Of a stretch of DNA of 64,000 bases, positions 8,751-55,466 are shown piece by piece; the stretch's first letter is position 1; each line of letters opens with the position of its first letter. Origin of the DNA: Microgenomates group bacterium (lineage in GTDB: Bacteria > Patescibacteriota > Microgenomatia > Daviesbacterales > UBA10151). Position numbers and translations under genes: made by a program. The stretch spans positions 512,589 through 576,588 of the forward strand of contig JBAZXP010000001.1 in the NCBI GenBank assembly GCA_041659805.1, given 5' to 3'. The notes beneath the pieces are model-generated. The model did no database searches and was not told the DNA's origin. It saw nothing but the letters and a program-made list of their open reading frames with translations.

Positions 8751-8760
8751 AAAATTTAGG

Positions 8761-8766
8761 TATAAT
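8761..8766 (+). promoter_or_regulatory. TATAAT -10-like box 6 nt upstream of ATG 8773 (near-leaderless start)
   Basis: 'aggTATAATattagtATG'. No Shine-Dalgarno between box and start. Confidence 0.3.
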
Positions 8767-8772
8767 ATTAGT

Positions 8773-10401: not shown

Positions 10402-10404
10402 AAG

Positions 10405-16005: not shown

Positions 16006-16060
16006 TATAAGCGTCTGTTCTTTTTTGCCAAATTACTATTCTCACAATTTAAATGAACAT

Positions 16061-23490: not shown

Positions 23491-23511
23491 TTATAGTGTG
23501 ATGTTAATCAT

Positions 23512-33539: not shown

Positions 33540-33548
33540 GTTTTGAAT

Positions 33549-34523: not shown

Positions 34524-34581
34524 TTTTTAGAAATAATAGATCTAATGGCAGATTTTAAGTAGAGCTTATAACAACCTACTT

Positions 34582-34595
34582 TGTAGATTTCTACA
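34582..34595. promoter_or_regulatory. Perfect 6-2-6 inverted repeat TGTAGA-TT-TCTACA in the largest intergenic region
   Basis: Seen directly at 34582-34595, about 60 bp upstream of the minus-strand epimerase gene start (34523). Candidate operator or small structural element. Confidence 0.25.
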
Positions 34596-34665
34596 TTACA
34601 TTAAACAAGTAAAAATATCAATGACTCTTAGTTTAAATGATATAGAATGATTTAATAAATAATAG

Positions 34666-35439: not shown

Positions 35440-35442
35440 ACT

Positions 35443-36453: not shown

Positions 36454-36454
36454 T

Positions 36455-39261: not shown

Positions 39262-40587
39262 ATGTTAAAAGAAATGATGGATAAATGTGACATACTGATC
39301 GTTATGTTCTTTTTTAAAGGAAGAGATGCCGAAATTATTATTCCACTTAAATATTATTTAGAAAATATATTCCATCTTAATGTAAAAGTTTGTTCAGTTT
39401 TTGATCCGTATATGATTGATATATATAATCCAGGAATTGTATTAATGGAAAATACTATTGGGTCTGAATTTCATGTCGCTTTCGGAAAATATGCTTTTAA
39501 AAAAGGATATCCTATAGTGAGTCTGGTTTCAGAAGGATATTTAACCGAACAAAATGTACAGACTGATTTATGGGGGTGTAACCTAAAGCATGAGATATAT
39601 TTCAATAAATGGTTTCTTTGGACGCCGGGTTTAAAAAGAATGGCATTAAAATATTTTCCTGACCTAAAGAAAAAAGTTGATCTTGATATCTCAGGAGCAA
39701 TTGGGTTTGATAGATATCAGATATATGATTTCGCTGATCAAAGAAAATTTTTAAAAAAATACCATAAAGAAAAATATAAAAAAGTTATCGGTTACGCAGG
39801 ATGGGTATTTTGTTCGTATTTTAATCCTAAAGAATACGAAAAACTTATTAGTGAATTCGGGCAAAAATACTTTTCCTATTTTAAAAATGATAAAGAGACA
39901 GTTAGTAATATTTTGCGTCAAATCATTAAATCAAATAAAGACACACTTTTTATTTTCAAATTGCATCCAAGCGAGATGGAAGATAATATGGATATTTCAA
40001 GAAGTTGGGCGCAAGAATTTGATAATGTTTTAGTTTTTCAAGCAGAGGAGCCTGTAGCAGATATTATCAACGTCTGTGATATTTGGATGGTTTATGATTC
40101 CACAACATGCACGGAAGCTTGGTTGTTGGGTAAGCCAACAATAGTGATTATGCCTTCACCTAACATAAAATTTCGCAGTGACTGTTATAAAGGTAGTGCG
40201 ATTGCTCGTAATTTACACCAACTTTCAGATCTTATTGATAATTATAAAGAAAAAGAGAGGGTGGAAGGTTTTTATGAGAAGAAAAAATATAGAAAAAAGA
40301 TTATAAGAGCGCTTGTTTACAGAGAAGATGGCCTTAATTTTAAAAGAACTGCAGAGAAGATTCATCAATTTCTTATGATATCTTCAAAACGCCGTGATAC
40401 TTCCCTTTTGTCTTTTAAAATTTGTTATTTAATACAACATTTATCATTGGTTTTGCTTTCTAGACTTATTTGGTTACCTTTTTTGAATAAGTCAACAATT
40501 TTAAAATGGTATAACGAACAACCAGATTTTATTAATTTAGAAAAAAAGTATACTCCTTATATTAGGAAATTCTTAAAAACATCTTAA
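39262..40587 (+). CDS. GT-B-fold transferase resembling TagB/TagF (CDP-glycerol glycerophosphotransferase) or KpsC/KpsS capsule families
   Basis: 'TLFIFKLHPSEMEDN', 'IINVCDIWMVYDSTTCTEAWLLGKPTIVI' resemble the HP catalytic motif and C-terminal Rossmann region of Glyphos_transf / Capsule_synth proteins. Assignment between the two is not possible by eye. Confidence 0.35.
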   Translation: MLKEMMDKCDILIVMFFFKGRDAEIIIPLKYYLENIFHLNVKVCSVFDPYMIDIYNPGIVLMENTIGSEFHVAFGKYAFKKGYPIVSLVSEGYLTEQNVQTDLWGCNLKHEIYFNKWFLWTPGLKRMALKYFPDLKKKVDLDISGAIGFDRYQIYDFADQRKFLKKYHKEKYKKVIGYAGWVFCSYFNPKEYEKLISEFGQKYFSYFKNDKETVSNILRQIIKSNKDTLFIFKLHPSEMEDNMDISRSWAQEFDNVLVFQAEEPVADIINVCDIWMVYDSTTCTEAWLLGKPTIVIMPSPNIKFRSDCYKGSAIARNLHQLSDLIDNYKEKERVEGFYEKKKYRKKIIRALVYREDGLNFKRTAEKIHQFLMISSKRRDTSLLSFKICYLIQHLSLVLLSRLIWLPFLNKSTILKWYNEQPDFINLEKKYTPYIRKFLKTS

Positions 40588-40591
40588 AGTT

Positions 40592-42001
40592 TTAGACAGC
40601 TCTGAAGCCGCGAAAACTAGAATCTTTATCAATGTAGAGTTTTCGTGCAGTTTTTATAGCATTTTTGCATGACTGTTTATAATATGCTTCTAGAAGGGTT
40701 TTATTTGCTTTAAATAATGCTTCATGGAATTTGTCGTCTGTCATATTTGTGAAATTAACCGCTAATAGGTCCGAATTGATGTGTTTATTTTCATAAAAAT
40801 CCTTCGGACCTTTTAATAAGCCTTTTTCTATCGCATAATAGTATAGAGGGGAACCTGGGTATGGAGTTACTGGCCGTATGGTACGGAGTTGAGCATGATC
40901 GTCGTATTTTAAAAGAAAATCGACACCTTTTTGCAACGAGGTTCTTGTTTCTCCTATGTTTCCGAAAATAATATTTAATCCGGGGCTAATTCCTACATCC
41001 AAAGTATTTTTTATTCCTTCATGGATCATTTTAATAGTTAAGCCTTTTTTCATAGTAATTAAGGCTTTTTGGTCTAAGGATTCAATGCCATAGTTTATAA
41101 AGATGCAGCCGGCTTTTTTCATGAGTTGTAAAACTTCTTTATTTGCGAAATTTAATCTGCCGTTACAATCCCATTTAAACTTCATTCCCGATTTTAATAT
41201 TCCTTCGCATAGCTCAACAGTTCTTTGTTGAGAAGACATTAACAAATCATCAGAAAAGGTAATTGCTGTAATATTGTAATCAGTTTGAAGTTTTTTAACT
41301 TCTTCTAAAATATTTCCTATTGATCTTGGTCTGAACCCTTTATCCATTCTGTAGCAGAAATTACACTGAAAAATACATCCTCTCCCTGAAAGAACGGGCA
41401 TTAGACGATCGCTTCTTAGTATATTGGGGGTTCGGTATAAAGAATAATGATTTATCGGAAATAATTCCCAAGAGGGAAAATCGATTTTATCTATATCTGT
41501 AATTAACGGTCTGGGCGGATTTATTACATATTTCTTGCCGTCTCTGTAGGCAATTCCATTAATGGGAGAAAGCGAGTGTTTCCCTGCAAGCGCCTTCATT
41601 ACTTCGAGAATAGTAATCTCTCCTTCTCCTCTGACGATAATGTCAGCACCGGTCTTTTTCAGAAAATATTCCGGTTCAGGTGCAGGCCCATGGCCACCTA
41701 ATATATAAATAGGACGTCTTTTTGATTTATTGATAGCATCAGAAAGTTTAAGAAGCTTTTGGTATTGATAATAACCTGCAATTACACTAACTCCGATTAC
41801 ATCAAAATGTTCTCTATCTAATAGGTCTGTGAGATGTTGTTCAGGCCAATGATAAATATCTTGATTATATACAGTAACATCGTAGCCAGCCTTTATTAGC
41901 GGTGTTGCAATGTATGCGAGTCCCTGAGGGAACCAGGAGACTAAAGAATCATTATCATAAACGACAAGAAGAACGCGACCTATATTTTTTTTGGCTTTCA
42001 T
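40592..42001 (-). CDS. B12-binding-domain radical SAM enzyme (class B)
   Basis: N-terminal 'RVLLVVYDNDS ... DVIGVSVIAGY' B12-binding-like domain, 'LSGRGCIFQCNFCY' (CxxxCxxC). Confidence 0.8.
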   Translation of the reverse strand: MKAKKNIGRVLLVVYDNDSLVSWFPQGLAYIATPLIKAGYDVTVYNQDIYHWPEQHLTDLLDREHFDVIGVSVIAGYYQYQKLLKLSDAINKSKRRPIYILGGHGPAPEPEYFLKKTGADIIVRGEGEITILEVMKALAGKHSLSPINGIAYRDGKKYVINPPRPLITDIDKIDFPSWELFPINHYSLYRTPNILRSDRLMPVLSGRGCIFQCNFCYRMDKGFRPRSIGNILEEVKKLQTDYNITAITFSDDLLMSSQQRTVELCEGILKSGMKFKWDCNGRLNFANKEVLQLMKKAGCIFINYGIESLDQKALITMKKGLTIKMIHEGIKNTLDVGISPGLNIIFGNIGETRTSLQKGVDFLLKYDDHAQLRTIRPVTPYPGSPLYYYAIEKGLLKGPKDFYENKHINSDLLAVNFTNMTDDKFHEALFKANKTLLEAYYKQSCKNAIKTARKLYIDKDSSFRGFRAV

Positions 42002-42088: not shown

Positions 42089-42883
42089 ATGAATAATATG
42101 GATAAAAGAATTAAATATTGGGAAAAAAACTATGTTGAATATTGGAAAGATAGGGTTAGCGATAATTCTAAAAACAATTTAGCTAAAAAAGATGTTTTAC
42201 CGCCTGATTTAAAAATATTTAAAAAATATTATAAAAAAGCTCTTAGCTATATAAATAAAAATTCTCCCACAATTCTTGATATAGGAATTGGCTTCGGAAG
42301 GTTTGCTCCTCTTTATAAAGAAAATTTTGAATCTAATATATGGGGTAGTGATATTTCCCAAGGAATGGTGGATGAATGTAAAAAGAATTATCCTGAAATA
42401 TCCAAACAGATTAAAACAGCACCTGCTGAAACTCAGCCATTTAAAGACGCAAGCATGGATTTAATTATTTGTTGGGCAACTTTTGATGCTACCTTTCAGG
42501 ACAAAACATTATGGGAATTTCAAAGACTTTTAAAAATAGGAGGTTTGGCTTTAATTACAGGAAAAAATGACAAGTATCTTGCAACTGATAAGAAAGCACT
42601 AACAGCTGAAATTAATGCACGTAAAAAGGGTCATCCGAATTATTTTACTGACATTAATTTTCTCGAACAACACATTAAAGATTTCGGTTTTGAGATTGTA
42701 AAACTATTTAAATTTAAAAGAAGAGGGGATTTTGCAAACGATTTAAGTACGAATGAATCCTCTCGAAAATTTTATGAATATATTTTGATTTTGAGAAAAA
42801 CTGCACAGGGTAAAAATAAGCACAAGATTGCCTCAAAATTTAGTAAAGTCTATAAACAAATAGATAAAACAATAGGTGAATAG
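42089..42883 (+). CDS. Class I SAM-dependent methyltransferase
   Basis: 'ILDIGIGFGRFAPLY', 'IWGSDIS', 'MDLIICWATFD'. Confidence 0.65.
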   Translation: MNNMDKRIKYWEKNYVEYWKDRVSDNSKNNLAKKDVLPPDLKIFKKYYKKALSYINKNSPTILDIGIGFGRFAPLYKENFESNIWGSDISQGMVDECKKNYPEISKQIKTAPAETQPFKDASMDLIICWATFDATFQDKTLWEFQRLLKIGGLALITGKNDKYLATDKKALTAEINARKKGHPNYFTDINFLEQHIKDFGFEIVKLFKFKRRGDFANDLSTNESSRKFYEYILILRKTAQGKNKHKIASKFSKVYKQIDKTIGE

Positions 42884-42885
42884 AT

Positions 42886-43749
42886 ATGGCATATTTTGCA
42901 ATAATTTTGAGTTTAACCTTTTGGTCTATTACTCAAATTATTCTCAAATCCATTGTTGATAAATTACCCAAGTCGAAGGCTCTCATCGCTCAATATATAA
43001 TTTCATTTTTATTCATCGTATTTTATGCGATCTTCACAGAACAAATCCAAATGGAAATAGGATTTTTTTTAATCACATTCGCAGGTTTTCTGAGCTCTAT
43101 CGGAGCTTATTTTCAATGGAGAGCATATAAAATTAGTCTAAGCAAGACAGGGTTATTTATGCCATTTATGAATATTATTGCTGCAATATTAACAGCAATA
43201 TTTTTGAAAGAAAAATTCCTTTATTCGAATATCGAATTTGTTTTAGGAGTTATTTTTTCTTTTATTGCTTCTTTTTTACTCGTTAGAAAGAAATCAAATG
43301 ATAAAAGTAAACTTGATTTGGAATGGTTATTTTCAGTTTTTGGGATGATAATTTTTACAGGAATCACATTATTTCTAATGAAAGTTTTTTCTTTTTCTAT
43401 ATCCAGGACTCAATTTTTAATTTACTGGTATTTGGGAGCAATTTTAGGTTCTGCAATATTTTTATGGGCAGGAAGGCACGATCAAAATAAATTATTTCAA
43501 AAAGGTTTTTGGAAAATTCCGTTAGCCAGCATAGGAACCTTAGGAACTTTGGCGGCTTTATATTGGGCTTTCCAAATTGCTCCTGCAGCTATAGTATTGC
43601 CTATACAGGCATTCGGGACTGCTTTTATTCCATTAATTTTAGGATTAGCAATTTTTAAAGAAAGAAAAATTTTGACAAAATATGAGATAATCGGTTTCTT
43701 ATTTGGAGCAATTGGAGTTGCACTAATTATAGTAAGCGGAAGAACATAA
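42886..43749 (+). CDS. 10-TM EamA/DMT-superfamily-like transporter
   Basis: Two internally repeated 5-TM halves, each ending with short charged loops. No ATP-binding motif. Confidence 0.45.
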   Translation: MAYFAIILSLTFWSITQIILKSIVDKLPKSKALIAQYIISFLFIVFYAIFTEQIQMEIGFFLITFAGFLSSIGAYFQWRAYKISLSKTGLFMPFMNIIAAILTAIFLKEKFLYSNIEFVLGVIFSFIASFLLVRKKSNDKSKLDLEWLFSVFGMIIFTGITLFLMKVFSFSISRTQFLIYWYLGAILGSAIFLWAGRHDQNKLFQKGFWKIPLASIGTLGTLAALYWAFQIAPAAIVLPIQAFGTAFIPLILGLAIFKERKILTKYEIIGFLFGAIGVALIIVSGRT

Positions 43750-43751
43750 AT

Positions 43752-44477
43752 ATGTATAAAAAGAAGAAAATAATTTTGACAATTTGTGCTAGAGGTGGCT
43801 CTAAAGGTTTACCTGGGAAAAATACGAAAAATCTTTTAGGAAAACCGCTAATAGCTTATTCTATAGAACAAGCTAAGACTCTTAGTTGGATAGACCGGAT
43901 AGTAATTTCAACTGATGATAAAGAAATAAAAAAGGTAGCAGAAAAAATGGGAGTAGAGGTACCATTTATGAGACCTGCAGCATTAGCTACAGATGTAGCT
44001 CCTAAAATCCCCGTATTTTTGCACGCTATTCAAGAAGCCGAAAAATATTGGAATGAGAAATATGATATTTGGGTGGATTTAGATGCTACCAGTCCTTTAC
44101 GCTTTACAGACGATATTAAAAAAACCATTGATCTTTTGTTTGCTCGTGATACATTGTCAGTCATCACAGCAATGGAGTCTCATCATAATCCTTATTATAA
44201 TATGGTAGAAATGGATGACCAAAAATATGTTTCTGTATCAAAGAAGCTTTCACAATCTGTTACAAGGAGACAGGATGCTCCGAAGGTATATGCCATGAAC
44301 GGGAGCATTTATGTTATGTGGAGGGACGAACTTCTTAAACGAGGAACCTTTTTTACCAATAAGACAAAATTGTATATTATGCCTCCTGAAAGATCTTTTG
44401 ATATAGATAATTTGGTAGATTTTGAAATAGTTAAGCTTTATTTAAAGCAGCGGGTAAAAAAGGAAAAAACTAATTAA
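43752..44477 (+). CDS. CMP-nonulosonic acid synthetase (acylneuraminate cytidylyltransferase family, NeuA/LegF-like)
   Basis: 'IILTICARGGSKGLPGKNTKNLLGKPLIAYSIEQA', 'IVISTDDKEIKKVAEKMG' are classic CTP_transf_3 signatures. 241 aa with no C-terminal esterase domain. Confidence 0.85.
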   Translation: MYKKKKIILTICARGGSKGLPGKNTKNLLGKPLIAYSIEQAKTLSWIDRIVISTDDKEIKKVAEKMGVEVPFMRPAALATDVAPKIPVFLHAIQEAEKYWNEKYDIWVDLDATSPLRFTDDIKKTIDLLFARDTLSVITAMESHHNPYYNMVEMDDQKYVSVSKKLSQSVTRRQDAPKVYAMNGSIYVMWRDELLKRGTFFTNKTKLYIMPPERSFDIDNLVDFEIVKLYLKQRVKKEKTN

Positions 44478-46086
44478 TTGTTTTCCTGGAATGTTTGGCA
44501 TAATAATCATTTACCATTTTTTCAACTATTTTAATTTTTTGTCCTAAAGTTTCTCCCCGTTCGCGATCCTTTTTTGTAACCAGTTTTCCCAGTCTATGCT
44601 TACCACGACAGGCATAAAGAATTTCTTTAGGTGTGTAATCGGCTTTTTTGCCATTAATATCGCTGGCAAATAACCCTGCGGCGTCCCATAAGGTCATGGT
44701 TGTCCAGGCATCCAGATCTCCTGTCCATTTCAACTTTCCTTCTTCTATCATCACTGCAAGTTGTGTACTTGGCAGAGGGGTACAGATTGAAATCATGGCA
44801 TATACAGCGCCTTTCTTTTCCAATTTCTGGATATATTTTAATGTTTCAAGAGTTTGTTGGGGGGTTTCTCCGGGGAGACCAACCATGTTTAATAATTTCA
44901 CTTCGATGCCCGCTTTAGCCATCGCCTCAGTCGCATCCTCTATAGTTTTATTAGAAATCATTTTTCCTATTGCTTGATACCTTAATATTTCGCTGCCTGT
45001 TTCAGGTGCGATGTGTAATTGACGACAGCCTGCTTTATATATTAGTTGCAAAAGATTCATTTTACGTCCTTTGTAAGTAACTTTATACTCAGCGGCTCTT
45101 GTAACTAAATTTGCTCTGGTAATAGCTGTCCAAATACAGCCTTTAAGTTTAGGATTTTCTAAAATCATTCGTGCGGTTTTTTCTACTACATCCAGTTGCA
45201 CTAAATAAAGATCATCAGTAAGATAAAAATCCACGACACCTAATTTTTTTAAATATTCCATATGTTTAATAATATTTTTAGGTGTTAGCCCTCTCCATTT
45301 ATGACCCGATACTTCCTGGTCACAAAAAAAGCATGCGTTAGGGCATCCCCGGGAAGTAAGCATGGCAAGTTGAAATTCTCCTTTTTGAGGAGTGAATTCA
45401 GAGAGATGATATTTGGTTAAATCACCCAGCAGCTCATATTCAGGAATCGGAATTTTATTAATATCTTCTATCCTTTCAGCATGTTTAGGCCAGTCAATTT
45501 TTTTACCCAAATCTTTAATGTTTTGGGTTAATCTGGTATACCCACGAACCTTATCCTTTACATAATGCAGTTTACCTTTTTTATCTTTGAATACAATTCC
45601 CGGCACTTTTTTCAATAATTTTTGATTACCCCAATTTTTAATTAAAATAGGAGTAACTAATTCGCCTTCACCGACAACCTCATAGGAAAAGATGTCACCA
45701 TATTTTTCCATTGTTCTTACCGGAACTGCACTTGGGTGAGGGCCTCCCAAAAACTGCCGGTATTTTGATGATTTTTCTTTAAGTTTTTTGGCAATCCGCG
45801 CAGTTTTATCAATTGTAGTTATCCATCCAGCCCATCCCACATACCCTCCATCCGGCATTATTTCCAGTATTCTATCTACTGTTTCATCTTCAGTTAACAA
45901 TTCCTTATCTGCATCAAGAACAGCAACTTTGAACCCCTGTTTTTTTAAGCATGTCGCTACGCATAAGATTCCGACAGAAGGTATACTGTGTGCACCACCC
46001 CTTGCTTTAAGTTCGGGAATATCTCTTTCGGCAAATGAATTAGGAGCCACAAGTACGATATCAGGAGTAATAATTTTTTTAGCCAT
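44470..46086 (-). CDS. B12-binding-domain radical SAM enzyme (class B)
   Basis: 'SRGCPNACFFCDQ' (CxxxCxxC) preceded by a ~240 aa B12-binding-type domain. 3' end overlaps the NeuA-like gene by 8 bp, convergently. Confidence 0.8.
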   Translation of the reverse strand: MAKKIITPDIVLVAPNSFAERDIPELKARGGAHSIPSVGILCVATCLKKQGFKVAVLDADKELLTEDETVDRILEIMPDGGYVGWAGWITTIDKTARIAKKLKEKSSKYRQFLGGPHPSAVPVRTMEKYGDIFSYEVVGEGELVTPILIKNWGNQKLLKKVPGIVFKDKKGKLHYVKDKVRGYTRLTQNIKDLGKKIDWPKHAERIEDINKIPIPEYELLGDLTKYHLSEFTPQKGEFQLAMLTSRGCPNACFFCDQEVSGHKWRGLTPKNIIKHMEYLKKLGVVDFYLTDDLYLVQLDVVEKTARMILENPKLKGCIWTAITRANLVTRAAEYKVTYKGRKMNLLQLIYKAGCRQLHIAPETGSEILRYQAIGKMISNKTIEDATEAMAKAGIEVKLLNMVGLPGETPQQTLETLKYIQKLEKKGAVYAMISICTPLPSTQLAVMIEEGKLKWTGDLDAWTTMTLWDAAGLFASDINGKKADYTPKEILYACRGKHRLGKLVTKKDRERGETLGQKIKIVEKMVNDYYAKHSRKTIN

Positions 46087-46124
46087 GATTGCGAAATTAT
46101 AGCATAAGGAAAGTCATCATAAAA

Positions 46125-47291
46125 TTATATTTCAAAGACTTTCGTAAAAGTATTTCCTTCTAAATCATGAGCTGCTATGCCAGCAGTTTTACCCCTATCT
46201 TCCGGAATTAAATTATATTCCCATGTATCCTTGTCTTTTTTAAACATTGGCTTCCAAATATAGATATTTTTACTATATTTAATTGCTAAAAAAGGCTGGT
46301 GGTTATATAAGCTTTTGTTGGTTTTAATTTGTATTTTTTCCGATTCTTTTTTAATCCTAAGTTTTAAAATTTTTCCTGATCGGATTTTCTGAAACATTTT
46401 TATGGCATCTTTGCCTGAGGTATATGAAAATTTAATCCCAGTTTTTTTTGAGGATTCTGAAATCCATTGCATGATTTGTTCAAATTCATGAGCTCGGTCA
46501 CGAAAATCATGATCAAAAACAGATAAAATAATATCAGAATTTTTTGCATCTTTAAAAGCTTTCAAAATTTCTTCTTTTATAACGGTATGTGCACCAGATT
46601 TAACATCCAAGGAGCGGATGATCAACCTTTTCATTTTTCCAGAGACTGTAAAATCAACTTCTGACGGATGATATGGAATCCAATTGTTTGGAGCTTTGTG
46701 CCAGCTAAGCAAGTCTCTCAATTTATTACCATCCGCTTCAATTTTCTCCCAGTTTATATTACTGCCATTTCTATTTGAATAGTCATAAGGAATCCACTGT
46801 TCTAACCAATTAGATTGATTAGTATCTTCGATTGTTCCGCCCGAACGATAAACTATCGGAAAGAACTTTCGATCAATGATAAATCTGCATAATTGATTTT
46901 CATATTCACGGTTTGTAAACCAGTTTAAACCCCATTCATTTCCAATCCCGGTTATTGAAGCATGGTGATAGTGCCAGCCAATTTCATCTTGATACTTTTT
47001 GATCTGTTTACCCCATTTTTTTAAATAATGGTCATAAACTTTATGATAACCGAGTTCATGTTGAATGGGGTTTGTAAGAAATCCTGTCCAATTTAACATA
47101 AACCAGGTGAAAACTGCAGGCTTTCCGGTACTATCGGGAAATGAATAACGGAAATTATCAGAAAAGACTTTTGATAAAAATATTTTATCAATATCTTTCC
47201 AACTACCTAAAAGTTGGGAAGGTTGATGATAGTTTGGGTCTGTGAAAGGTCCTTCAGTATCAATACAAAAAACAACAAAAACTCTATTCAT
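46125..47291 (-). CDS. Hypothetical protein; possible divergent polysaccharide-deacetylase/(beta/alpha)-barrel hydrolase-like
   Basis: 'VFVVFCIDTEGP' and His-rich 'WHYHHASITG' recall metal-dependent CE4-type deacetylases, but no firm motif match. Confidence 0.3.
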   Translation of the reverse strand: MNRVFVVFCIDTEGPFTDPNYHQPSQLLGSWKDIDKIFLSKVFSDNFRYSFPDSTGKPAVFTWFMLNWTGFLTNPIQHELGYHKVYDHYLKKWGKQIKKYQDEIGWHYHHASITGIGNEWGLNWFTNREYENQLCRFIIDRKFFPIVYRSGGTIEDTNQSNWLEQWIPYDYSNRNGSNINWEKIEADGNKLRDLLSWHKAPNNWIPYHPSEVDFTVSGKMKRLIIRSLDVKSGAHTVIKEEILKAFKDAKNSDIILSVFDHDFRDRAHEFEQIMQWISESSKKTGIKFSYTSGKDAIKMFQKIRSGKILKLRIKKESEKIQIKTNKSLYNHQPFLAIKYSKNIYIWKPMFKKDKDTWEYNLIPEDRGKTAGIAAHDLEGNTFTKVFEI

Positions 47292-47323
47292 TTATTTTTA
47301 TTTGTGATATTCTACCACATATT

Positions 47324-48373
47324 ATGATGGAAATTGGCGAAAAAAAGATTGGTGGAAATAATCCTGTATTCATTATTGCCGAAGCTGGTGTAAATCACAA
47401 TGGTAAGTTAGATTTAGCTCTGCAGCTGGTTGACGTTGCTGCAGCATCCGGAGCTGATGTTATAAAATTTCAAACCTTCAAAGCAGAACAAGTAGCAACT
47501 GAAAAAGGGGAAATGGCTGATTATCAAAAAGCTAACTTGGGTAAAGTGGAATCTCAACAGGATATGCTCAGGAAGCTTGAGCTAAAAGAACAATTTTATG
47601 AACCTATTATTAAAAGATGCAAGGAAAAGAATATCATGTTTCTTTCTACACCTCATGGGGGAGTAGAAAGTGTAGATTTTTTAGAAAATTTGGGAGTGGA
47701 GGCATTTAAGGTAGGATCAGGTGACTTAACCAATTACTTACTTTTAAACAGACTGGCAAAAACCAAAAAACCTGTAATTCTAAGTTCAGGAATGGCAACT
47801 TTAAAAGAAGTTATTGATGCAGTTGAATTCATAAAAAGCAAAGGTTGTAAAAAGTTAGCAATGCTTCACTGCACCACCGATTATCCGTGTTCTTCCGAGA
47901 AAGTGAATATGGCCTCAATGGTTACCATGATGAAAAGATTAGATGTTCCTGTAGGATATTCTGATCATACTCAAGGTGTTGTTGCAGCTATTATGGCAAC
48001 AACACTGGGTGCAACAATTTATGAATGCCATTTCACTGTAGATAAAAAATTACCTGGTCCTGATCATGTCGCTTCAGTTAGTCCTGAAGAACTAAAAATG
48101 AGAATAGATGCCATAAGGGACGTAGGAGTAATGATGGGGAGCGCCAAAAAGGTTCCTAATAAAAGTGAATTGAAATTAATTTCAATTGTAAGAAGAAGTA
48201 TTGTAGCTGCATCAGATTTATCCTCAGGGCATTTGTTAACGCTTAAAGATTTAGAAGCAAAAAGACCGGGTGATGGTATTTCTCCGAAAGAATACGAAAA
48301 GCTTTTAGGGAAAACTCTCAAGAATGATTTATCAAAAGATCAACAGATCCAAAAAACTGATATTAGACACTAG
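47324..48373 (+). CDS. Nonulosonic acid synthase (NeuB/LegI/PseI family)
   Basis: 'NPVFIIAEAGVNHNGKLDLALQLVDVAAASGADVIKFQTF' is the classic NeuB N-terminus. C-terminal SAF domain 'IVAASDLSSGHLLTLKDLEAKRPGDGI'. Confidence 0.9.
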   Translation: MMEIGEKKIGGNNPVFIIAEAGVNHNGKLDLALQLVDVAAASGADVIKFQTFKAEQVATEKGEMADYQKANLGKVESQQDMLRKLELKEQFYEPIIKRCKEKNIMFLSTPHGGVESVDFLENLGVEAFKVGSGDLTNYLLLNRLAKTKKPVILSSGMATLKEVIDAVEFIKSKGCKKLAMLHCTTDYPCSSEKVNMASMVTMMKRLDVPVGYSDHTQGVVAAIMATTLGATIYECHFTVDKKLPGPDHVASVSPEELKMRIDAIRDVGVMMGSAKKVPNKSELKLISIVRRSIVAASDLSSGHLLTLKDLEAKRPGDGISPKEYEKLLGKTLKNDLSKDQQIQKTDIRH

Positions 48374-48420
48374 CATTCATAAATTGACGTATATATAATC
48401 TGTCTCATAAAGGGAATTTT

Positions 48421-49569
48421 GTGAGAAAAAGAAAAATTGCATATATAACTGGTACAAGAGCAGATTATGGTTTAATGACCCCTGTTTTGCGAAGTATTGA
48501 AGAAAGCAAAAAATTAGAACTCCAACTTTATACAACTGGTATCCATTTAATGCCGCAATTTGGTGAAACAGCTAAATTAGTTAAAAAAGAATTTCCACAA
48601 ACAAGAAGAATCAAAGCAATTTTTAAAACAGATGAAAAATCCAGCGTGGTTGATTTTTCCGGACTTTATATTAATTTATTGAACAAGGTTTTTAAAAAGG
48701 ATAAACCGGATATTGTCTTAATTTTGGGTGATAGGGTAGAGATGCTATGTACGGCAATGGTTTGTTTATATTTAGGAATTCCTACTGCACATATTCACGG
48801 AGGAGAGAAAACTTTTACAGTTGATGAGGTTTCCCGTCATGCAATTTCTAAAATTTCTAGTTTGCATTTTCCTGCAACAAAAGAATCTGCCGAAAGAATT
48901 CTAAAAATGGGGGAAGAAAAATGGCGGATACATGTAGTTGGAGCCCCGACATTGGATAGTATCTTAAATAAAAAACTACCAACAAGAATAGAAGTTCTTG
49001 AAAAATTAAGTATGGATCCAAAGCAAAAATTTATTTTGGTAGTTCAACATCCAGTGAGCAGTGAAATGAAAGATTCGGGTTATCAAATGCAAGAAACAAT
49101 TACTGCAGTAAAAGAAATTAATTTGCCCGTTGTGATAATTTATCCCCATCCTGATCCGGGTGGGAGAAAGATTATTAAAATTATAGAAAAAGAAAAGAAT
49201 AACCCATTATTTCATATTTTCCCGAACATAGATTTTGAATCGTTTTTAGCACTGGAGCGCGAAGCAATAGTTTGGGTAGGTAATAGCAGTGCAGCGATGA
49301 TAGAGTCGTCATCTTTTAAAACTCCAGTGGTAAATATCGGTACGAGACAGATCGGTAGACAGCGGGGAGAAAATGTAATTGATGTAGGATATAACAGAAA
49401 AAATATCTTAATAGCCATAAAAAAATCCTTGACTGATAAGTCATATCTTGCTAAGCTGCAAACTATCAAGAATCCTTGGGGAGATGGTAAAACAGGATCA
49501 AGGATTGTCCGAATTTTGGAAGAAATTGAAATTAACTCCAAAATATTAATCAAACAAATAACATATTAA
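48421..49569 (+). CDS. Hydrolysing UDP-sugar 2-epimerase (NeuC/LegG family)
   Basis: 'KIAYITGTRADYGLMTPVL', 'ILGDRVEMLCTAMV', 'HIHGGE' are the NeuC-type Epimerase_2 signature. GTG start with an 'AAAGGGA' motif 6 nt upstream. Confidence 0.8.
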   Translation: MRKRKIAYITGTRADYGLMTPVLRSIEESKKLELQLYTTGIHLMPQFGETAKLVKKEFPQTRRIKAIFKTDEKSSVVDFSGLYINLLNKVFKKDKPDIVLILGDRVEMLCTAMVCLYLGIPTAHIHGGEKTFTVDEVSRHAISKISSLHFPATKESAERILKMGEEKWRIHVVGAPTLDSILNKKLPTRIEVLEKLSMDPKQKFILVVQHPVSSEMKDSGYQMQETITAVKEINLPVVIIYPHPDPGGRKIIKIIEKEKNNPLFHIFPNIDFESFLALEREAIVWVGNSSAAMIESSSFKTPVVNIGTRQIGRQRGENVIDVGYNRKNILIAIKKSLTDKSYLAKLQTIKNPWGDGKTGSRIVRILEEIEINSKILIKQITY

Positions 49570-51095
49570 TGCACGATAATTTTAAAAATTGGAAACTGCC
49601 TAAATTTAATAAAACTGGCATGACCAAATGGAATTGGATGTGTCAATATCACGAAAATCTTAAATTAGGCAAATACACAGATATAGGCGCTTTTACTTAT
49701 ATTAATGCTAATTTTGGAGTCGAGATAGAAGATTATGTAGAGATCGGTTCGGGGTGTAGTATTTATTCTAACAATACTATCGACGGAATAACCGGAAAAA
49801 TTGTTATCAAAAAAAATGCTAAAATCGGAGCTCATTGTACCATTATGCCAGGAGTAACAATCGGAGAGAACTCTTTGATTGGAGCATATAGTTTTGTAAA
49901 GAACGATATCCCCGCAAATTGTACGGCATTCGGAATTCCGGCTAAAGTTATTAAAAAAACCAACCGGCATAACGATAAGATTCAGATTGCCAAGCCGTTC
50001 ATTGATGAAACTGATAAAAGAGCTGTAATGGACGTTTTGGAATCAGGTTGGCTTTCATTGGGTCCAAAATATAAGGAATTTGAAACCAATATAGCTTCGT
50101 ATACCAGTGCAACTTATGCTTGTGCGGTATCCAGTGGTACTTCAGGACTTCATTTGGCAGTCATTGCACTGGGATTAAAAGCAGGAGATGAGGTAATTAC
50201 TACACCATTTTCTTTTGTAGCCTCATCGAATTGTCTAATATACGAAGGGGTAAAACCGGTATTTGTTGATATAGAAGAAGAGACTTTTAATTTAGATCCT
50301 GATAAAATCGAAGCGGCAATAACAAAAAGAACAAAAGCAATTTTAGTTGTACATATCTTCGGTCAATCCGCGCGGATGGATAAGATTTTGAAAATTGCTA
50401 AAAAATATAAACTGAAAGTTATTGAGGATTCATGTGAGAGTTTGGGCGCCAGGTTCCAAGATAAGATGACAGGAACATTCGGAGATATCGGTGTTTATTC
50501 TTTTTACCCCAATAAACAAATGACTACAGGAGAAGGAGCGGTAATTGTTACAAATTCAAAAAAGTTATATGAATTATGTGATAGTTTGAGAAATCAGGGT
50601 AGAGGTTTAAGAGAGTCTAAAAAAGGGAAAGATTGGGATTGGCTCATGAGTGAAAGGGTAGGATATAACTACCGGATGGATGAAATGAGCGCTGCGCTTG
50701 GAGTGACACAACTCCAAAAAATTGATTGGATGATTGGTGAAAGAAGGAAAATTGTAGATCTATATAAAAAATATTTAGGAGAAATGGAAAGTATTATGGT
50801 TCCCATAATAGGTAAAAACAGAACCCATACATGGTTTGTATATGTCATTAGAGTGTTGAATAACAAACGAGATAAATTAATGAGCGATCTATCTGCTTCG
50901 GGTATTCAAGTAAGACCCTATTTACCGGCAATTCACTTACAATCGTTTATGAAAAAAATGTTCGGTTTTAAAAAGGGAGATTTTCCTGTAACCGAAAATA
51001 TTTCCTCCCAGACACTTGCGCTACCTTTTTATATTGGATTAGCAGAAGATGATATTAAATATATAGCAAATAAAATAAGGGAATCGCTTAAATGA
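49569..51095 (+). CDS. Fused left-handed-beta-helix N-acetyltransferase (PglD/LegH-like) plus DegT/DnrJ/EryC1 PLP-dependent sugar aminotransferase (PglE/LegC-like)
   Basis: Residues ~40-150 are hexapeptide repeats ('IGSGCSIYSNNTIDG', 'IGAHCTIMPGVTIGENSLIGAYSFV'). Residues ~160-508 are 'DVLESGWLSLGPKYKEFE', 'SFYPNKQMTTGEGA' (PLP-Lys region), 'YYRMDEMSAALG'. Confidence 0.8.
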   Translation: MHDNFKNWKLPKFNKTGMTKWNWMCQYHENLKLGKYTDIGAFTYINANFGVEIEDYVEIGSGCSIYSNNTIDGITGKIVIKKNAKIGAHCTIMPGVTIGENSLIGAYSFVKNDIPANCTAFGIPAKVIKKTNRHNDKIQIAKPFIDETDKRAVMDVLESGWLSLGPKYKEFETNIASYTSATYACAVSSGTSGLHLAVIALGLKAGDEVITTPFSFVASSNCLIYEGVKPVFVDIEEETFNLDPDKIEAAITKRTKAILVVHIFGQSARMDKILKIAKKYKLKVIEDSCESLGARFQDKMTGTFGDIGVYSFYPNKQMTTGEGAVIVTNSKKLYELCDSLRNQGRGLRESKKGKDWDWLMSERVGYNYRMDEMSAALGVTQLQKIDWMIGERRKIVDLYKKYLGEMESIMVPIIGKNRTHTWFVYVIRVLNNKRDKLMSDLSASGIQVRPYLPAIHLQSFMKKMFGFKKGDFPVTENISSQTLALPFYIGLAEDDIKYIANKIRESLK

Positions 51096-52087
51096 ATGAT
51101 TTCCGTACTACTTTTAAAAACAAAAGAATTTTGGTTACAGGAGGTACTGGTTCGATTGGTAGTGAAATTGTCAGACAACTAATTCCTTTAAAACCTAAAC
51201 AAATCAGGATTTATTCGAGAGATGAATCAAAACAATACCAACTACAGCATGAACTAAGTTACTTTACTAACAATAAAGATATTTTACGTTTTTTGATCGG
51301 AGATATTCGGGATAAAGAAAGATTGAAAAGAGCCTTTAATGATATAGATATTGTTTTTCATGCAGCTGCGCTAAAACATGTGCCCTTTTGCGAAGATAAC
51401 CCCTTTGAAGCCACAAAAACTAATGTTCAAGGTACCCAAAACGTCCTAGATTTAGCGATTGACCATAGGGTAGAAAAAGTAATAGCTATTTCATCTGATA
51501 AAGCTGTAAATCCAAACACGTTTATGGGAATAACTAAATTAATGATGGAAAGAATGGTGATTTCTGCTGCTAACTACTCAGGGCAACTGGAAACTAAATT
51601 CGCTGCGGTAAGATTTGGTAATGTTATCAATTCAAGGGGTTCTGTGATTCCTTTGTGGATAGATCAAATAAAAAAGGGTGGGCCGGTTACTGTAACAGAT
51701 AAAAAGATGGAAAGATATTTTATGACTATTAGAGATGCTGTAAATCTTATATTTATGTCCACAAAAATTATGTTGGGAAAGGAGATCTTTGTTCTTAAAA
51801 TGTCTAAGTGTAATATCTATGAATTAGCTCAAGAAGTAATTGATCGTTATAGTAGTGGTAAGTTAATTAAAATAAAGATTACTGGTTCTAGAATAAGAGA
51901 AAAATTAGACGAACGTTTATATACAGATGAAGAAGAACAATTGATGATTGATGCGGGATTGTTTAATATTATTCAACCAACTATGGAGGACCTCAAAAAA
52001 CGATTATCTAAATATAATATTAGCAAAAAAAATAGAAATATTAAAATTGCCGATATATTTGATTCACTTCCAAAATTAAACAACTAG
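51092..52087 (+). CDS. UDP-GlcNAc 4,6-dehydratase (Polysacc_synt_2; PseB/PglF/CapD type)
   Basis: 'KRILVTGGTGSIGSEIVRQL', 'FLIGDIRDKERL', 'VFHAAALKHVPFCEDNPFEATKTNVQGT', 'ISSDKAVNPNTFMGITK', 'VRFGNVINSRGSVIPLW'. Confidence 0.85.
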   Translation: MNDFRTTFKNKRILVTGGTGSIGSEIVRQLIPLKPKQIRIYSRDESKQYQLQHELSYFTNNKDILRFLIGDIRDKERLKRAFNDIDIVFHAAALKHVPFCEDNPFEATKTNVQGTQNVLDLAIDHRVEKVIAISSDKAVNPNTFMGITKLMMERMVISAANYSGQLETKFAAVRFGNVINSRGSVIPLWIDQIKKGGPVTVTDKKMERYFMTIRDAVNLIFMSTKIMLGKEIFVLKMSKCNIYELAQEVIDRYSSGKLIKIKITGSRIREKLDERLYTDEEEQLMIDAGLFNIIQPTMEDLKKRLSKYNISKKNRNIKIADIFDSLPKLNN

Positions 52088-52110: not shown

Positions 52111-53682
52111 TTATTTTTTTAATGAGAATTGTTTTAAGAAACTATTGATTCGAACAAGGGTATTTAATATTTTTGGATATTGATTACCAATTGCAATAAA
52201 ATTATTAGTTTCTGTAATTATAGTAATAAAATAATCAAATATACCAAGAGCAAGTCCAAAAACAAATACTATGAAGCTGTAAATTATTCCAGTAATGATG
52301 AATTGAATGAAATTATGTGGAGCAAAACCTGTAAATTCAATAAAAATATATAAAAATAAGGAAAAAATAATAATGATGCCGTAAAGTTTGAATGGAAAAT
52401 TAAAAATTAATTCTTTTTTGACTGTTTTTGCGAACAAAATTATTGACAATAAATATACTGCCGTGCTAGCAACTGCAGCACCTGTGATTCCATAAAGTCT
52501 AATTAAAATTATACTCAAGATTACATTGAATATGGCGATTATTACTGATATTTGCATTCTTTCCCGGACTTTTCCCATTCCGCTGGCTATAGTTGTTAAA
52601 AAACTTGAAAGTAAGGCAAGAATAGAGCCGAAAGCCATAATTCTTAATGGAGTTTCTACTAAACCAACCCATTTTGCACCGAAGATTATTTGAACTGTAA
52701 ACGAAGGGAAGAGAATAATGAATAAAGAAAAATAAGATCCAACAAAGGGGATAAGCTGAAGGCTGGCATTTAATATATAACGTGTTTTTGTCTGCTCTCC
52801 TTCCATAAGATGAGAAACTAACGGAAATAATAAATTATTTATTGGAGAAAGAAAAATACTTGGAATTGATATTAAAGGTAGTATTATATTGTAGATACCA
52901 ACTTCTCTAACATTTTTAAATAAAGTTAAGAAAAAATTATCAGTGAAGGTTATAAAAGTATAAATAGATGTAGTAATTAATGTAGGAATTGCGTATTGAA
53001 GCATTGTTGTAAATAATTTTCTATCCCATGACAAAGTTTTTTTCTTGAAATCCATATTTTGGCTTAATGAGTATGTATAAACAACAGTGCATATTATGTG
53101 TGATAGTGCCCAGGCAAGAGTGAAATAAAGTATGTTAGCATAATCAAAAACTAAGAATAATAAGGAAAATATCAATGCTAAAAATAGTCTGGAAAATTGT
53201 ATCGAGGAATAGATTTTTTCTTGCTGCAGTCCTGTAAACATTTTATACAATGCTTCTAAAAAGCTATTGGCAATAAAATAGATACAAAAAATATAAATTA
53301 GATTTTGTGCCTCGGGGACCTTAAAATAATTGATGCTCAACCAAGGTGCGGAAGCGATTAAGATTAATGAGAGTAAAATTGATGTCCCGACTTCAATAAA
53401 CTGGTTATATTTAAAAACCAGCCAACTTTTTTGAAAATCTTTTTGTTTGATAAATTTAGGAATTAGATAAGTGACACTATAACCGAATCCGAGATCCTTA
53501 TATGTTGTTAAGATCCCAAAAAAAGCAAGTAATGAATAGAATAGTCCATACATCTCAATCGATAAAGAATTAGAATAAAGAATTCGTAAGACATATCCTA
53601 ATGGGGATGTTAAAAGCGAGAAGAAAATGATAATGGATGTTCCTTTAAATATTCTTTTTGACAAAATTTCTTGGTTATGCAT
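52111..53682 (-). CDS. wzx: Wzx-type oligosaccharide flippase (MOP superfamily; Polysacc_synt family)
   Basis: 523 aa, about 14 TM helices, typical Wzx N-terminus ('KGTSIIIFFSLLTSPLGYVLRILYSNSL'). Confidence 0.55.
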   Translation of the reverse strand: MHNQEILSKRIFKGTSIIIFFSLLTSPLGYVLRILYSNSLSIEMYGLFYSLLAFFGILTTYKDLGFGYSVTYLIPKFIKQKDFQKSWLVFKYNQFIEVGTSILLSLILIASAPWLSINYFKVPEAQNLIYIFCIYFIANSFLEALYKMFTGLQQEKIYSSIQFSRLFLALIFSLLFLVFDYANILYFTLAWALSHIICTVVYTYSLSQNMDFKKKTLSWDRKLFTTMLQYAIPTLITTSIYTFITFTDNFFLTLFKNVREVGIYNIILPLISIPSIFLSPINNLLFPLVSHLMEGEQTKTRYILNASLQLIPFVGSYFSLFIILFPSFTVQIIFGAKWVGLVETPLRIMAFGSILALLSSFLTTIASGMGKVRERMQISVIIAIFNVILSIILIRLYGITGAAVASTAVYLLSIILFAKTVKKELIFNFPFKLYGIIIIFSLFLYIFIEFTGFAPHNFIQFIITGIIYSFIVFVFGLALGIFDYFITIITETNNFIAIGNQYPKILNTLVRINSFLKQFSLKK

Positions 53683-53783: not shown

Positions 53784-55466
53784 ATGTTGTTATTATTAAA
53801 AAGCATTGTTACGAATATTCCGTTTTCCATAAGGTTATACATTTTATGGCGAAAGTCTAATATTTTATGGAATACAAAAATTTCCCCGTTTGTGATTCCG
53901 GATAAGAAAAAAGAATACTTAAGTAAAACTTTTTTTGATAGGAAATCAGTCAGTAAAAAGAAAGGTCCGGTGGTTCTTGTTTCCAGGGATATTGCTTTTA
54001 CATTTCCTTTATCATATGCATATTTGGCAGGTTATTTAAAAGAAAAAGGAGTTGATGTAGTTATCCTTTTTAAAAACATAGGCCAGGACGAATTGGTTAA
54101 AAAAATAAAAAAACTCCATCCCATTTTAGTCGGTTTTGGAAATTTATATCCGGAACTTGAGGAGATCTCAAGTATTATATATAAACTAAATCAATCAGGA
54201 CGTGATTTTCCAATTGTTATTGGCGGGCAGATGTTTTCCCCTATTCCGGAATTTGCTATGAAATTAACTGGTGCAGATTACGGAGTGATCGGTGAAGGAG
54301 AAATCATACTCTATAAATTAGTAAAAGCTTTACAGAAAAATTCTGATCTTTCTAAAATCAAAGGCTTAGTCATCAGAGATAAGGATAAAATTACTATTAA
54401 TGACGGAGGAGAGTATATTGATGACCTGTCAAAACTTCCCAAAATTCCATATGAATTATTTGATGTCGATAAATGGTTGTTGATTGGAAGATGGTTTACC
54501 CAATTCAGGCCTGAACAACCACATTGGAGATTTGATGACAGGGTTATTAATGTACATGGTGGACGAGGATGTCCGTTTAAATGTAATTTTTGTTATCACC
54601 ATAATAAACCAAGGTACCGTGATATTAACGATATGATGGACGAAGCGGAAAAAGCATTAGAAAGGTTTGACGCAAACATGCTTTACTTTTCAGACGATTT
54701 AGTAATCGCCAATCCTCAAAGAGTTAGAGAATTGATAGCCAGGGTTAAAAGACTCAAGCGCCCGATAAGTTATAAAATTTCAACTAGGTTTGATATTTTA
54801 GAAAGGCTTAGTGATGAACTGCTTAAGGAGCTACATGAAACAGGATGCAGGATTATTGGTTTAGGGGTAGAATCCGGATCTAATAGGATACTAAAATTAG
54901 TTGGTAAAAATACAACTTCTGAAAAGATCTTAAAAGGACTTAAAAGGATCAAACAGTCCGGAATATTACCGACTGTTTCTGTAATGGTAGGTCAATATAC
55001 GGAAACAAGAGAGGATGTAGAGAAATCTTTTGAACTGATGAAAAAAGCTGTTAAAACTAATCCCTTAATTTCGTTCGCTTTTACTATCACAACTCCTTTT
55101 CCCGGCTCAATTTTATACGATATCTTATTTGCCAAAAAATTGTTGAAAAGTGATGAGGACTTTTATTACCGCTATATCGCTGGAAAAGTTGGACCATGGA
55201 ATCAGGTGGTTAATATGTCATCAATGTCTGATTACGAAGTAATAAAATTAAGAAATGAACTTGAGAAAAGCTATAACGAAGAAAGGCTTAAAGCGTTAGG
55301 GGAAGAGCGTTTCGAAAAGATAACAAGAATATGTAATAAACAAAGAAGAGCTGCAGAAGTTTTTGAAAGTAAGACTAAAAGAGAAAAGAAAAGGGATGAG
55401 GCTGCTTATTCTGAGGAACAACTAGAACTTGAAAATGAAAAATTATCTCTAATGGGAGTAGCTTGA
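53784..55466 (+). CDS. B12-binding-domain radical SAM enzyme (class B) with charged C-terminal tail
   Basis: 'GPVVLVSRDIAFTFPLSYAYLAGYLKEKGVDVVIL' B12-binding-like domain, 'HGGRGCPFKCNFCYH' (CxxxCxxC). Confidence 0.8.
   Translation: MLLLLKSIVTNIPFSIRLYILWRKSNILWNTKISPFVIPDKKKEYLSKTFFDRKSVSKKKGPVVLVSRDIAFTFPLSYAYLAGYLKEKGVDVVILFKNIGQDELVKKIKKLHPILVGFGNLYPELEEISSIIYKLNQSGRDFPIVIGGQMFSPIPEFAMKLTGADYGVIGEGEIILYKLVKALQKNSDLSKIKGLVIRDKDKITINDGGEYIDDLSKLPKIPYELFDVDKWLLIGRWFTQFRPEQPHWRFDDRVINVHGGRGCPFKCNFCYHHNKPRYRDINDMMDEAEKALERFDANMLYFSDDLVIANPQRVRELIARVKRLKRPISYKISTRFDILERLSDELLKELHETGCRIIGLGVESGSNRILKLVGKNTTSEKILKGLKRIKQSGILPTVSVMVGQYTETREDVEKSFELMKKAVKTNPLISFAFTITTPFPGSILYDILFAKKLLKSDEDFYYRYIAGKVGPWNQVVNMSSMSDYEVIKLRNELEKSYNEERLKALGEERFEKITRICNKQRRAAEVFESKTKREKKRDEAAYSEEQLELENEKLSLMGVA

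Follow-up and report, generated by a model that had tools for sequence, protein, structure and literature searches.

What would a bacterium of the candidate phyla radiation (CPR) make with genes resembling those for sialic acid-like sugars? The question is raised by positions 43752-52087 of a 64,000-nucleotide stretch, here called the window, of a Microgenomates/Daviesbacteria genome. The window is AT-rich (GC about 29-37%). The region probably encodes a pathway with UDP-linked precursors that ends in a CMP-activated 5,7-diacetamido-3,5,7,9-tetradeoxy-nonulosonate (nonulosonate, NulO) of the legionaminic (Leg) type in a Daviesbacteria-like CPR bacterium. The operon itself is ordinary and complete, with three modest twists: a recurrent fusion of neighboring genes, a small left-handed beta-helix (LbH) domain outside the PglD type, referred to below as mini-LbH, and an inserted tailoring module.

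Open reading frames (ORFs) of at least 120 aa throughout the window were scanned against Pfam and NCBIfam. Pathway assignment used curated hidden Markov model cutoffs, gene-context tallies and inspection of catalytic motifs. Five plus-strand genes encode the pathway. The first is a 241-aa CMP-nonulosonate synthetase of the NeuA/LegF type (43752-44477; CTP_transf_3, E 4e-22; best PDB match a CMP-NeuNAc synthetase, 6ifd, with 135 bits). It is followed by a 349-aa nonulosonate synthase of the NeuB/LegI type (47324-48373; NeuB and SAF domains, TIGR03569) and a 382-aa hydrolyzing UDP-sugar 2-epimerase of the NeuC/LegG type (48421-49569; Epimerase_2, TIGR03568). Next come a 508-aa fusion of an LbH acetyltransferase with a DegT aminotransferase (49569-51095; Hexapep and DegT) and a short, soluble, 331-aa UDP-GlcNAc 4,6-dehydratase of the CapD/PseB fold (51092-52087; Polysacc_synt_2, E 1e-103). 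Within the fusion, the N-terminal mini-LbH domain (aa 1-137, 49569-49979) has its Hexapep match at aa 78-111, and the C-terminal pyridoxal phosphate-dependent DegT domain (aa 138-508, 49980-51095) matches DegT_DnrJ_EryC1 with E 2e-120. The neuC stop overlaps the start of the fusion gene by 1 nt, and the fusion gene overlaps the dehydratase gene by 4 nt. An earlier note, made from the letters of this DNA, had placed six enzyme activities here and called the pathway complete. Both claims hold: the ORFs are exact, the family matches are strong, and the dehydratase, aminotransferase, acetyltransferase, NeuC, NeuB and NeuA families are all matched.

Comparative genomics provides the decisive evidence. 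Species-representative genomes were scanned with a NeuB profile and the nearest 80 loci, mostly from metagenome-assembled genomes (MAGs), were tallied. Within 10 kb of NeuB, NeuC was present in 69 loci, a DegT aminotransferase in 60, a dehydratase in 49, a PglD-type acetyltransferase in 46 and a relative of the window LbH domain in 16. The order neuB-neuC-acetyltransferase-aminotransferase-dehydratase is shared with other CPR bacteria, with Bacteroidota and Gammaproteobacteria, and with several archaea. In a Bacteroidota MAG (L004) and a Roizmanbacteria contig (L005) it consists of NeuB, NeuC, an acetyltransferase of 205-213 aa composed of PglD_N plus LbH, a DegT aminotransferase of 368-372 aa and a short dehydratase, and the acetyltransferase slot of L007 is likewise PglD-type. 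Eight loci instead carry a stand-alone protein of 132-164 aa, 55-66% identical to the window N-domain, directly after NeuC. They include Yanofskybacteria (L009 and L016), Falkowbacteria (L034), Gammaproteobacteria (L030), an archaeon (L011), Thermoplasmata (L014) and Thorarchaeota (L027), together with L008. Where the locus reaches far enough, the aminotransferase follows, and 6/8 loci (L008, L009, L016, L027, L030 and L034) run straight on with the stand-alone mini-LbH in the slot, typically as NeuA-NeuB-NeuC-miniLbH-aminotransferase-dehydratase.

The acetyltransferase and aminotransferase are truly one 508-aa protein, as the earlier note had it, with LbH spanning about aa 20-137 and DegT aa 138-506. 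The DegT Pfam match starts at aa 145 and the match to the LegC model at aa 138, which puts the domain boundary at about residue 135-138. The boundary is fixed by the unfused orthologues P0078 and P0093, whose starts align with window residue ~135. The closest relatives of the protein are on Candidatus Daviesbacteria-type contigs. The same architecture, 505-511 aa long, is found on five independent Daviesbacteria-type contigs with 82-87% identity, and also on DPANN/Nanoarchaeota contigs with 48-58% identity. An assembly or frameshift artefact was ruled out by the recurrence of the architecture in independent assemblies. Lys316 in the YPNKQ motif of the DegT domain is invariant in the alignment. 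This domain is 64-66% identical to the unfused aminotransferases of L004 and L005. Daviesbacteria-type aminotransferase domains have a 7-residue insertion, LRESKKG, at aa ~347-353, which none of the other aligned homologues has.

Trees were built by neighbor joining with bootstrap. In the aminotransferase-domain tree, the Daviesbacteria fusions group with the unfused L004 and L005 enzymes (100% bootstrap), and an unfused Methanosarcinales enzyme from L063 is joined by the DPANN-type fusions (97% bootstrap). Because these are two separate, well-supported groupings with unfused enzymes, the fusion arose at least twice, in Daviesbacteria and in a DPANN-type clade. It was found in none of the 80 NeuB-profile loci. 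The 508-aa gene arose when two neighbors in a widespread operon merged, since the stand-alone acetyltransferase gene lies directly upstream of the aminotransferase gene there. Recurrent fusion of these neighbors argues that the two domains catalyze consecutive steps. The earlier note had set the fusion apart from characterized systems, in which the two enzymes are separate. The fusion is real but less special than implied, as it joins genes that are adjacent in many genomes and arose more than once; it is a minor variant and not a new system.

Other fusions were encountered in NulO pathways, among them a 772-aa NeuB~NeuC protein in Methanosarcinales (L063) and a 486-aa Glyco_tran_28_C plus GNAT protein resembling PseG~PseH (L090). 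Fusion of consecutive NulO enzymes seems to be common. The DPANN-type fusion loci (L001, L002, L003 and the JGI contig of P0020) have a different layout, with no NeuC beside NeuB. An AP_endonuc_2-like protein of 338-365 aa occupies the NeuC position and in one contig is fused to NeuB (704 aa). These loci also encode a CTP_transf_3-short-chain dehydrogenase/reductase (SDR) fusion, a second DegT protein (403-410 aa) and a GNAT protein, and they may represent a distinct NulO pathway. In the Nanoarchaeota contig L001, a DegT aminotransferase gene (15327-17060, minus strand) contains an intein with Intein_splicing and LAGLIDADG matches.

Which kind of acetyltransferase was joined to the aminotransferase? 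The earlier note had called the LbH domain PglD/LegH-type. This was not borne out, as the domain lacks both PglD_N and the general-base histidine. Pfam gave no match to PF17836 (PglD_N) in the fusion N-domain, and in the 202-position NeuD/PglB model TIGR03570 only the last 86 positions (117-202) are matched, with 58 bits vs a cutoff of 160.8. SIYSNN of the window protein aligns to IEHDNN of the PglD-type protein of L004, so that the histidine of 'EH' is missing. PglD was not among the top 60 Protein Data Bank (PDB) matches of the mini-LbH family profile. An exhaustive search with residues 1-137 returned 634 cluster representatives at E <1e-10; among the best matches, most align over the whole domain and are stand-alone proteins 125-175 aa long. 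The family has its own N-terminal segment, RFKxWxxPxIxxGxxTKWxW, and a CSIYSxSTID motif. Derivation of the N-domain by truncation of an adjacent PglD-type gene was ruled out by the full-length stand-alone homologues, which include the distinctive first 30 residues. The mini-LbH tree is poorly resolved, and because most of its bootstrap values are below 60% the origin of the Daviesbacteria domain is not traceable. By its sequence, mini-LbH is a family apart from PglD, with no characterized member, that takes the place of PglD-type enzymes in the operon.

No acyltransferase-family domain of the LbH or GNAT kind other than mini-LbH was matched by any of the scanned window ORFs, and none besides it was detected in operons such as L008, L009 and L016. 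The mini-LbH profile scores 65-71 bits against the LacA/Maa O-acetyltransferases in the PDB. Against nucleotide-sugar N-acetyltransferases the scores are 68 (4mzu), 67 (7s3u), 56 (QdtC), 52 (WlbB) and 51 bits (PerB). The LacA/Maa class has a nine-residue histidine loop that is missing from this family. Among LbH enzymes that acetylate amines, some are likewise histidine-less. We infer that mini-LbH is a 4-N-acetyltransferase, because it is the sole acyltransferase matched among the scanned window ORFs and detected in several sister operons, sits in the PglD slot and is histidine-less. Occasionally the module is joined to other sugar-pathway enzymes, namely a PglD-type acetyltransferase (P0243), CTP_transf_3 (the CMP-transferase P0251), a NeuC-type Epimerase_2 (P0346), formyltransferase and APS kinase, P0253 and P0256 being further proteins of this kind.

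The next question is which nonulosonate is made. The epimerase passes the NeuC model TIGR03568 (397 bits vs a cutoff of 236) and the synthase passes the NeuB model TIGR03569 (421.7 vs 399.65). In contrast, the models of the pseudaminic acid (Pse) pathway are all failed: PseB by the dehydratase (299 vs 408), PseC by the aminotransferase domain (330 vs 423), PseI by the synthase (274 vs 340) and PseF by the CMP-synthetase (155 vs 205.7). Two Leg models are failed too, the GDP-type LegB model TIGR04180 by the dehydratase (78 vs 475) and the LegC model TIGR04181 by the aminotransferase domain (286 vs 420). Neither a PseG-like (Glyco_tran_28) nor a GNAT PseH protein was matched by Pfam or NCBIfam among the scanned window ORFs. 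The catalytic motif of the dehydratase, SSDKAVNPNTFMGITK, contains an S-x9-M-x3-K triad with methionine where PseB and Pen have tyrosine. PseB, PseC and PseF are nevertheless the top-ranked NCBIfam models for three of the proteins, as would be expected of a cluster making pseudaminic acid. With all four Pse models under cutoff, NeuB passing, a NeuC-type epimerase in place of PseG, no GNAT PseH and the methionine triad, that product is extremely improbable. The earlier note's choice of a NeuC/NeuB legionaminic-type route over a pseudaminic one agrees with these results. 'Legionaminic' as an exact stereochemical call would go beyond what can be read from sequence.

Could the cluster instead hold two separate pathways, NeuC, NeuB and NeuA making CMP-Neu5Ac while a UDP-2,4-diacetamido sugar such as bacillosamine comes from the dehydratase and the fusion protein? 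The NCBIfam models passed by NeuB and NeuC are named for Neu5Ac enzymes. The best PDB match of the epimerase is 'GDP/UDP-N,N'-diacetylbacillosamine 2-epimerase (hydrolyzing)' (5zlr, 212 bits), nearly equaled by human GNE at 193 bits; the Neu5Ac-pathway epimerase SiaA of N. meningitidis scores 55 bits. PDB entries 7S3U, 5ZLR and 5XVS were identified by their PDB molecule names. The synthase scores 184 bits against SpsE, 179 against NmNeuB and 176 against PseI, and because these values are nearly equal they were dropped as pathway evidence. Against two pathways stand the translational coupling of the genes through the 1- and 4-nt overlaps, the five-gene order neuB-neuC-acetyltransferase-aminotransferase-dehydratase kept across phyla, and the presence of aminotransferase and dehydratase in the same locus as most of the nearest NeuB relatives. 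In addition, no other use for a diacetylbacillosamine (diNAcBac)-type sugar is evident in the window. Two pathways are therefore very unlikely.

A single pathway would still need an enzyme that places the sugar on a glycan. None of the scanned window ORFs matched a Maf, GT42, GT52 or GT80 family, in line with the earlier note, which had proposed the GT-B protein at 39262-40587 as a candidate CMP-NulO transferase. This proposal is strengthened. The 441-aa, GT-B-like protein (plus strand) scores 356.7 bits vs a cutoff of 200 with NF046086, over model positions 8-364 of 365; TIGR04396 is also matched, and the translation contains an LHP motif. NF046086 is named after BFO_1060 of T. forsythia, the strain 92A2 orthologue of Tanf_01245 and TFUB4_00887, and T. 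forsythia O-glycans lose their Pse or Leg derivative when Tanf_01245/TFUB4_00887 are deleted (PMC5420450). The BFO_1060-type family is small, with 30 homologues in a word-indexed search. Two distant homologues, P0402 and P0404, have CTP_transf_3/NeuB genes as neighbors, and for one of the two the cluster is of the Pse type. From these comparisons 39262-40587 is likely the enzyme that adds the NulO to the glycan.

A pathway of seven steps is proposed, for which the data give the enzyme families and we infer the substrates and stereochemistry. The short CapD-fold dehydratase (51092-52087) would turn UDP-GlcNAc into a UDP-4-keto-6-deoxy-HexNAc. The DegT domain of the 508-aa protein would transaminate C4, and its mini-LbH domain would acetylate the new amine, giving UDP-2,4-diacetamido-2,4,6-trideoxyhexose (UDP-diNAcBac if C5 is retained). 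The fusion would thus couple two consecutive steps, transamination and acetylation. The NeuC/LegG-type enzyme would then remove UDP and epimerize C2, the NeuB/LegI-type synthase would condense the product with phosphoenolpyruvate, and the NeuA-type enzyme would make the CMP-sugar. Finally, the BFO_1060-family transferase would add the sugar to a glycan.

Several observations weigh against this assignment. The PDB scores of the synthase do not separate Leg, Neu and Pse references. The aminotransferase is under both the LegC and the PseC cutoffs. The dehydratase scores nearer to the C5-inverting enzymes Pen (237 bits), FnlA (222), CapE (222) and PseB (217) than to the retaining PglF (165), and CapE and FnlA share its methionine triad, which makes an L-series or 8-epi product possible. 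Mini-LbH has no characterized member, and its fusion to a PglD-type acetyltransferase in P0243 could mean a different acylation. Daviesbacteria L086, the closest sister locus, has no copy of the transferase gene. Two further alternatives concern C5 and the acylation.

If the dehydratase inverted C5, the pathway would lead through NeuC and NeuB to an 8-epi-legionaminic-type or other L-series 5,7-diamino nonulosonate. This would account for the ranking of the dehydratase scores, for a triad common to the inverting CapE and FnlA, and for an aminotransferase that falls in its own clade. Methionine is present in PglF as well, and nearly all CapD-type dehydratases that share an operon with neuC in the NeuB-profile loci carry the methionine motif. 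NeuC-type anti-elimination is established for alpha-D-gluco-configured UDP-sugars, which counts against C5 inversion, as does the closest epimerase structure, a diNAcBac epimerase. SpsM of B. subtilis, which has the same short CapD fold with a reported T-x9-M-x3-K triad, opens a UDP-linked Leg pathway, and the retaining PglF complements it (PMC7439481). An inverting dehydratase is considered unlikely on this balance.

The second alternative is that mini-LbH carries out another acylation, such as O-acetylation or a reaction on the CMP-sugar, leaving the C7 amine free or acylated by another enzyme. The LacA/Maa O-acetyltransferases among its top profile matches would fit such a role, as would its fusions to a PglD-type acetyltransferase, a CMP-transferase and NeuC (P0243, P0251, P0346). 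But the domain occupies the exact PglD-type slot, is the sole acyltransferase detected in several operons, was fused to the aminotransferase twice independently, and is without the histidine loop used by the LacA/Maa enzymes. A different acylation is accordingly rather improbable, and 4-N-acetylation in a legionaminic-type pathway remains the preferred assignment.

The interval 43752-52087 also holds two minus-strand genes, absent from the earlier note, that separate neuA from neuB. One encodes a class B B12-binding radical SAM enzyme (44470-46086; B12-binding and Radical_SAM domains) with a CPNACFFC motif at aa 248. The gene is kept at the same position in Daviesbacteria L086 with 84% identity, and its product may be a C-methylase or other tailoring enzyme. 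The other encodes a 388-aa barrel protein, tentatively labeled NodB/CE4-like (46125-47291), that has no Pfam or NCBIfam match, including Polysacc_deac_1. The AlphaFold2 model (mean pLDDT 94.3) shows a (beta/alpha)-barrel with a C-terminal beta-sandwich, and Foldseek found weak matches to chitin and polysaccharide deacetylases (E 8e-5 to 5e-3, TM 0.38-0.54). IDTEGP and WHYHH are conserved in the family. UniRef lists one member under 'NodB homology domain', and many members also contain a fused class I methyltransferase. Homologues lie inside NulO clusters in L086, in L087, where the methyltransferase is fused, and in L088, where it is separate and upstream. In L086 the radical SAM gene, the NodB-like gene and an additional SDR gene are found between neuA and neuB.

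Upstream of neuA on the plus strand are a class I S-adenosylmethionine (SAM)-dependent methyltransferase gene (42089-42883; Methyltransf_11/25) and an EamA/DMT-family membrane transporter gene (42886-43749; EamA, matched in two stretches), the latter with 2-nt gaps to both neighbors. The methyltransferase is a probable partner of the NodB-like protein in accessory tailoring, because NodB-like homologues in NulO clusters often carry such a methyltransferase as a fused part or have its gene ahead of theirs. That the radical SAM, NodB-like and methyltransferase genes tailor the sugar is probable, though it is the weakest link in the assignment. The NodB-like gene and neuB diverge from a 32-bp spacer (47292-47323), and neuA meets the radical SAM gene tail to tail, with 8 nt in common. 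This layout is very compact, with little room for promoters. On the other side of the operon lies a Wzx/MurJ-type polysaccharide flippase gene (52111-53682, minus strand; Polysacc_synt and Polysacc_synt_3), also kept at the same position in L086.

We wondered whether the inserted genes point to a product that has yet to be described. The cluster would then make a tailored legionaminic-type NulO whose N-acyl groups or carbon skeleton are remodeled by the radical SAM, NodB-like and methyltransferase proteins; the chemistry may be, for example, de-N-acetylation followed by methylation, or C-methylation. Mini-LbH would at the same time be a new, widespread family of histidine-less 4-N-acetyltransferases replacing PglD/LegH in CPR, DPANN, Asgard and other lineages. 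Taken together these proposals are tentative, possible but clearly short of probable.

How does the cluster compare with characterized systems? It resembles the UDP-linked Leg pathways, namely L. pneumophila NeuC/NeuB acting on UDP-diNAcBac and B. subtilis SpsM/C/D/G/E/F, in its presumed UDP-linked precursors, a first enzyme that is a short dehydratase of the CapD fold bearing a T/S-x9-M-x3-K triad, a DegT aminotransferase, a NeuB-type synthase with SpsE as top PDB match, and a CTP_transf_3 enzyme. Unlike them, its acetyltransferase is a mini-LbH domain fused to the aminotransferase, the pathway is predicted here from genes, and the cluster occurs in a CPR bacterium with extra radical SAM, NodB-like and methyltransferase genes. 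With the GDP-linked Leg pathway of C. jejuni (LegB/C/H/G/I/F) it shares the reaction logic and NeuC/NeuB/NeuA-type late steps. It differs from that pathway in a dehydratase that is not LegB-type, an aminotransferase under the LegC cutoff, the lack of a PtmE-type nucleotidyltransferase in the window, and an acetyltransferase that is not PglD/LegH-type.

The nearest likeness is to the uncharacterized, unfused operons of the form neuA-neuB-neuC-(mini-LbH or PglD-type)-aminotransferase-dehydratase, which have the same genes, order and tight spacing, with 48-66% identity for aminotransferase, dehydratase and mini-LbH. The window differs from them in that neuA is split from neuB by the two minus-strand genes and that acetyltransferase and aminotransferase are joined. 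The transferase resembles Tanf_01245/TFUB4_00887/BFO_1060 in passing NF046086, in length (441 vs 442-445 aa) and in its setting, with a NulO cluster and a methyltransferase nearby, but its gene is absent from the nearest Daviesbacteria relative. Mini-LbH is small and LbH-only, like the nucleotide-sugar N-acetyltransferases without an N-terminal domain (7s3u, FdtD-like 4mzu, QdtC and WlbB; 52-68 bits). The likeness is limited to generic LbH coils, and mini-LbH is equally near to LacA/Maa.

Nearly the whole window is a glycan-biosynthesis island. It contains many GT2 and GT4 glycosyltransferases, the Wzx-type flippase, an ABC-2 exporter and several methyltransferases, as well as three tandem PMT-like GT-C proteins and four B12-binding radical SAM enzymes. 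The former are paralogous PMT/PMT_2-type membrane glycosyltransferases of 529-542 aa (7137-11994, plus strand). Together with a PIG-V-like GT-C protein (13869-15008), they suggest extracytoplasmic glycosylation of protein or polymer. The radical SAM enzymes (28559-30142, 40592-42001 and 44470-46086 on the minus strand, 53784-55466 on the plus strand) are only 22-30% identical to one another, and all have CxxxCxxC. Four such divergent enzymes in one island are unusual for a reduced CPR genome. A B12-radical SAM gene was also found within 10 kb of NeuB in L016, L028, L034, L037, L040 and L073.

A second Epimerase_2 protein (23512-24603, 369 bits, WecB-like) adjoins a short UDP-sugar dehydrogenase-like ORF with a weak family match (22636-23490, minus strand), the pair spanning 22636-24603. 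This pair hints at N-acetylmannosamine (ManNAc) or its uronic acid (ManNAcA) in the glycan, and the T. forsythia NulO transferases use ManNAcA as their acceptor sugar. A minus-strand gene run at 31750-37381, not related to the NulO genes, resembles a pathway for an unusual or branched sugar. It encodes a transketolase split into N and C halves, an NDP-sugar 4,6-dehydratase-like SDR, a FabG-like SDR, an aldose-1-epimerase-like protein and an inositol-monophosphatase-like protein. Four large ORFs of 424-698 aa, all inside the island, have no Pfam or NCBIfam match (37420-39216 and 58091-60187, minus strand; 20583-21944 and 49-1323, plus strand).

Current understanding of NulO biosynthesis is not overturned by this cluster. 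The small LbH family is the likely acetyltransferase of a widespread Leg-like operon, and recognizing it would put right the annotation pipelines that search for PglD/LegH. The natural acetyltransferase-aminotransferase fusion could serve as a two-step biocatalyst for UDP-diNAcBac-type sugars. A search of the available literature library found no paper linking NulOs with CPR/Patescibacteria, and NulO operons are visible in several CPR lineages. The finding places sialic acid-like NulO surface decoration in CPR episymbionts.

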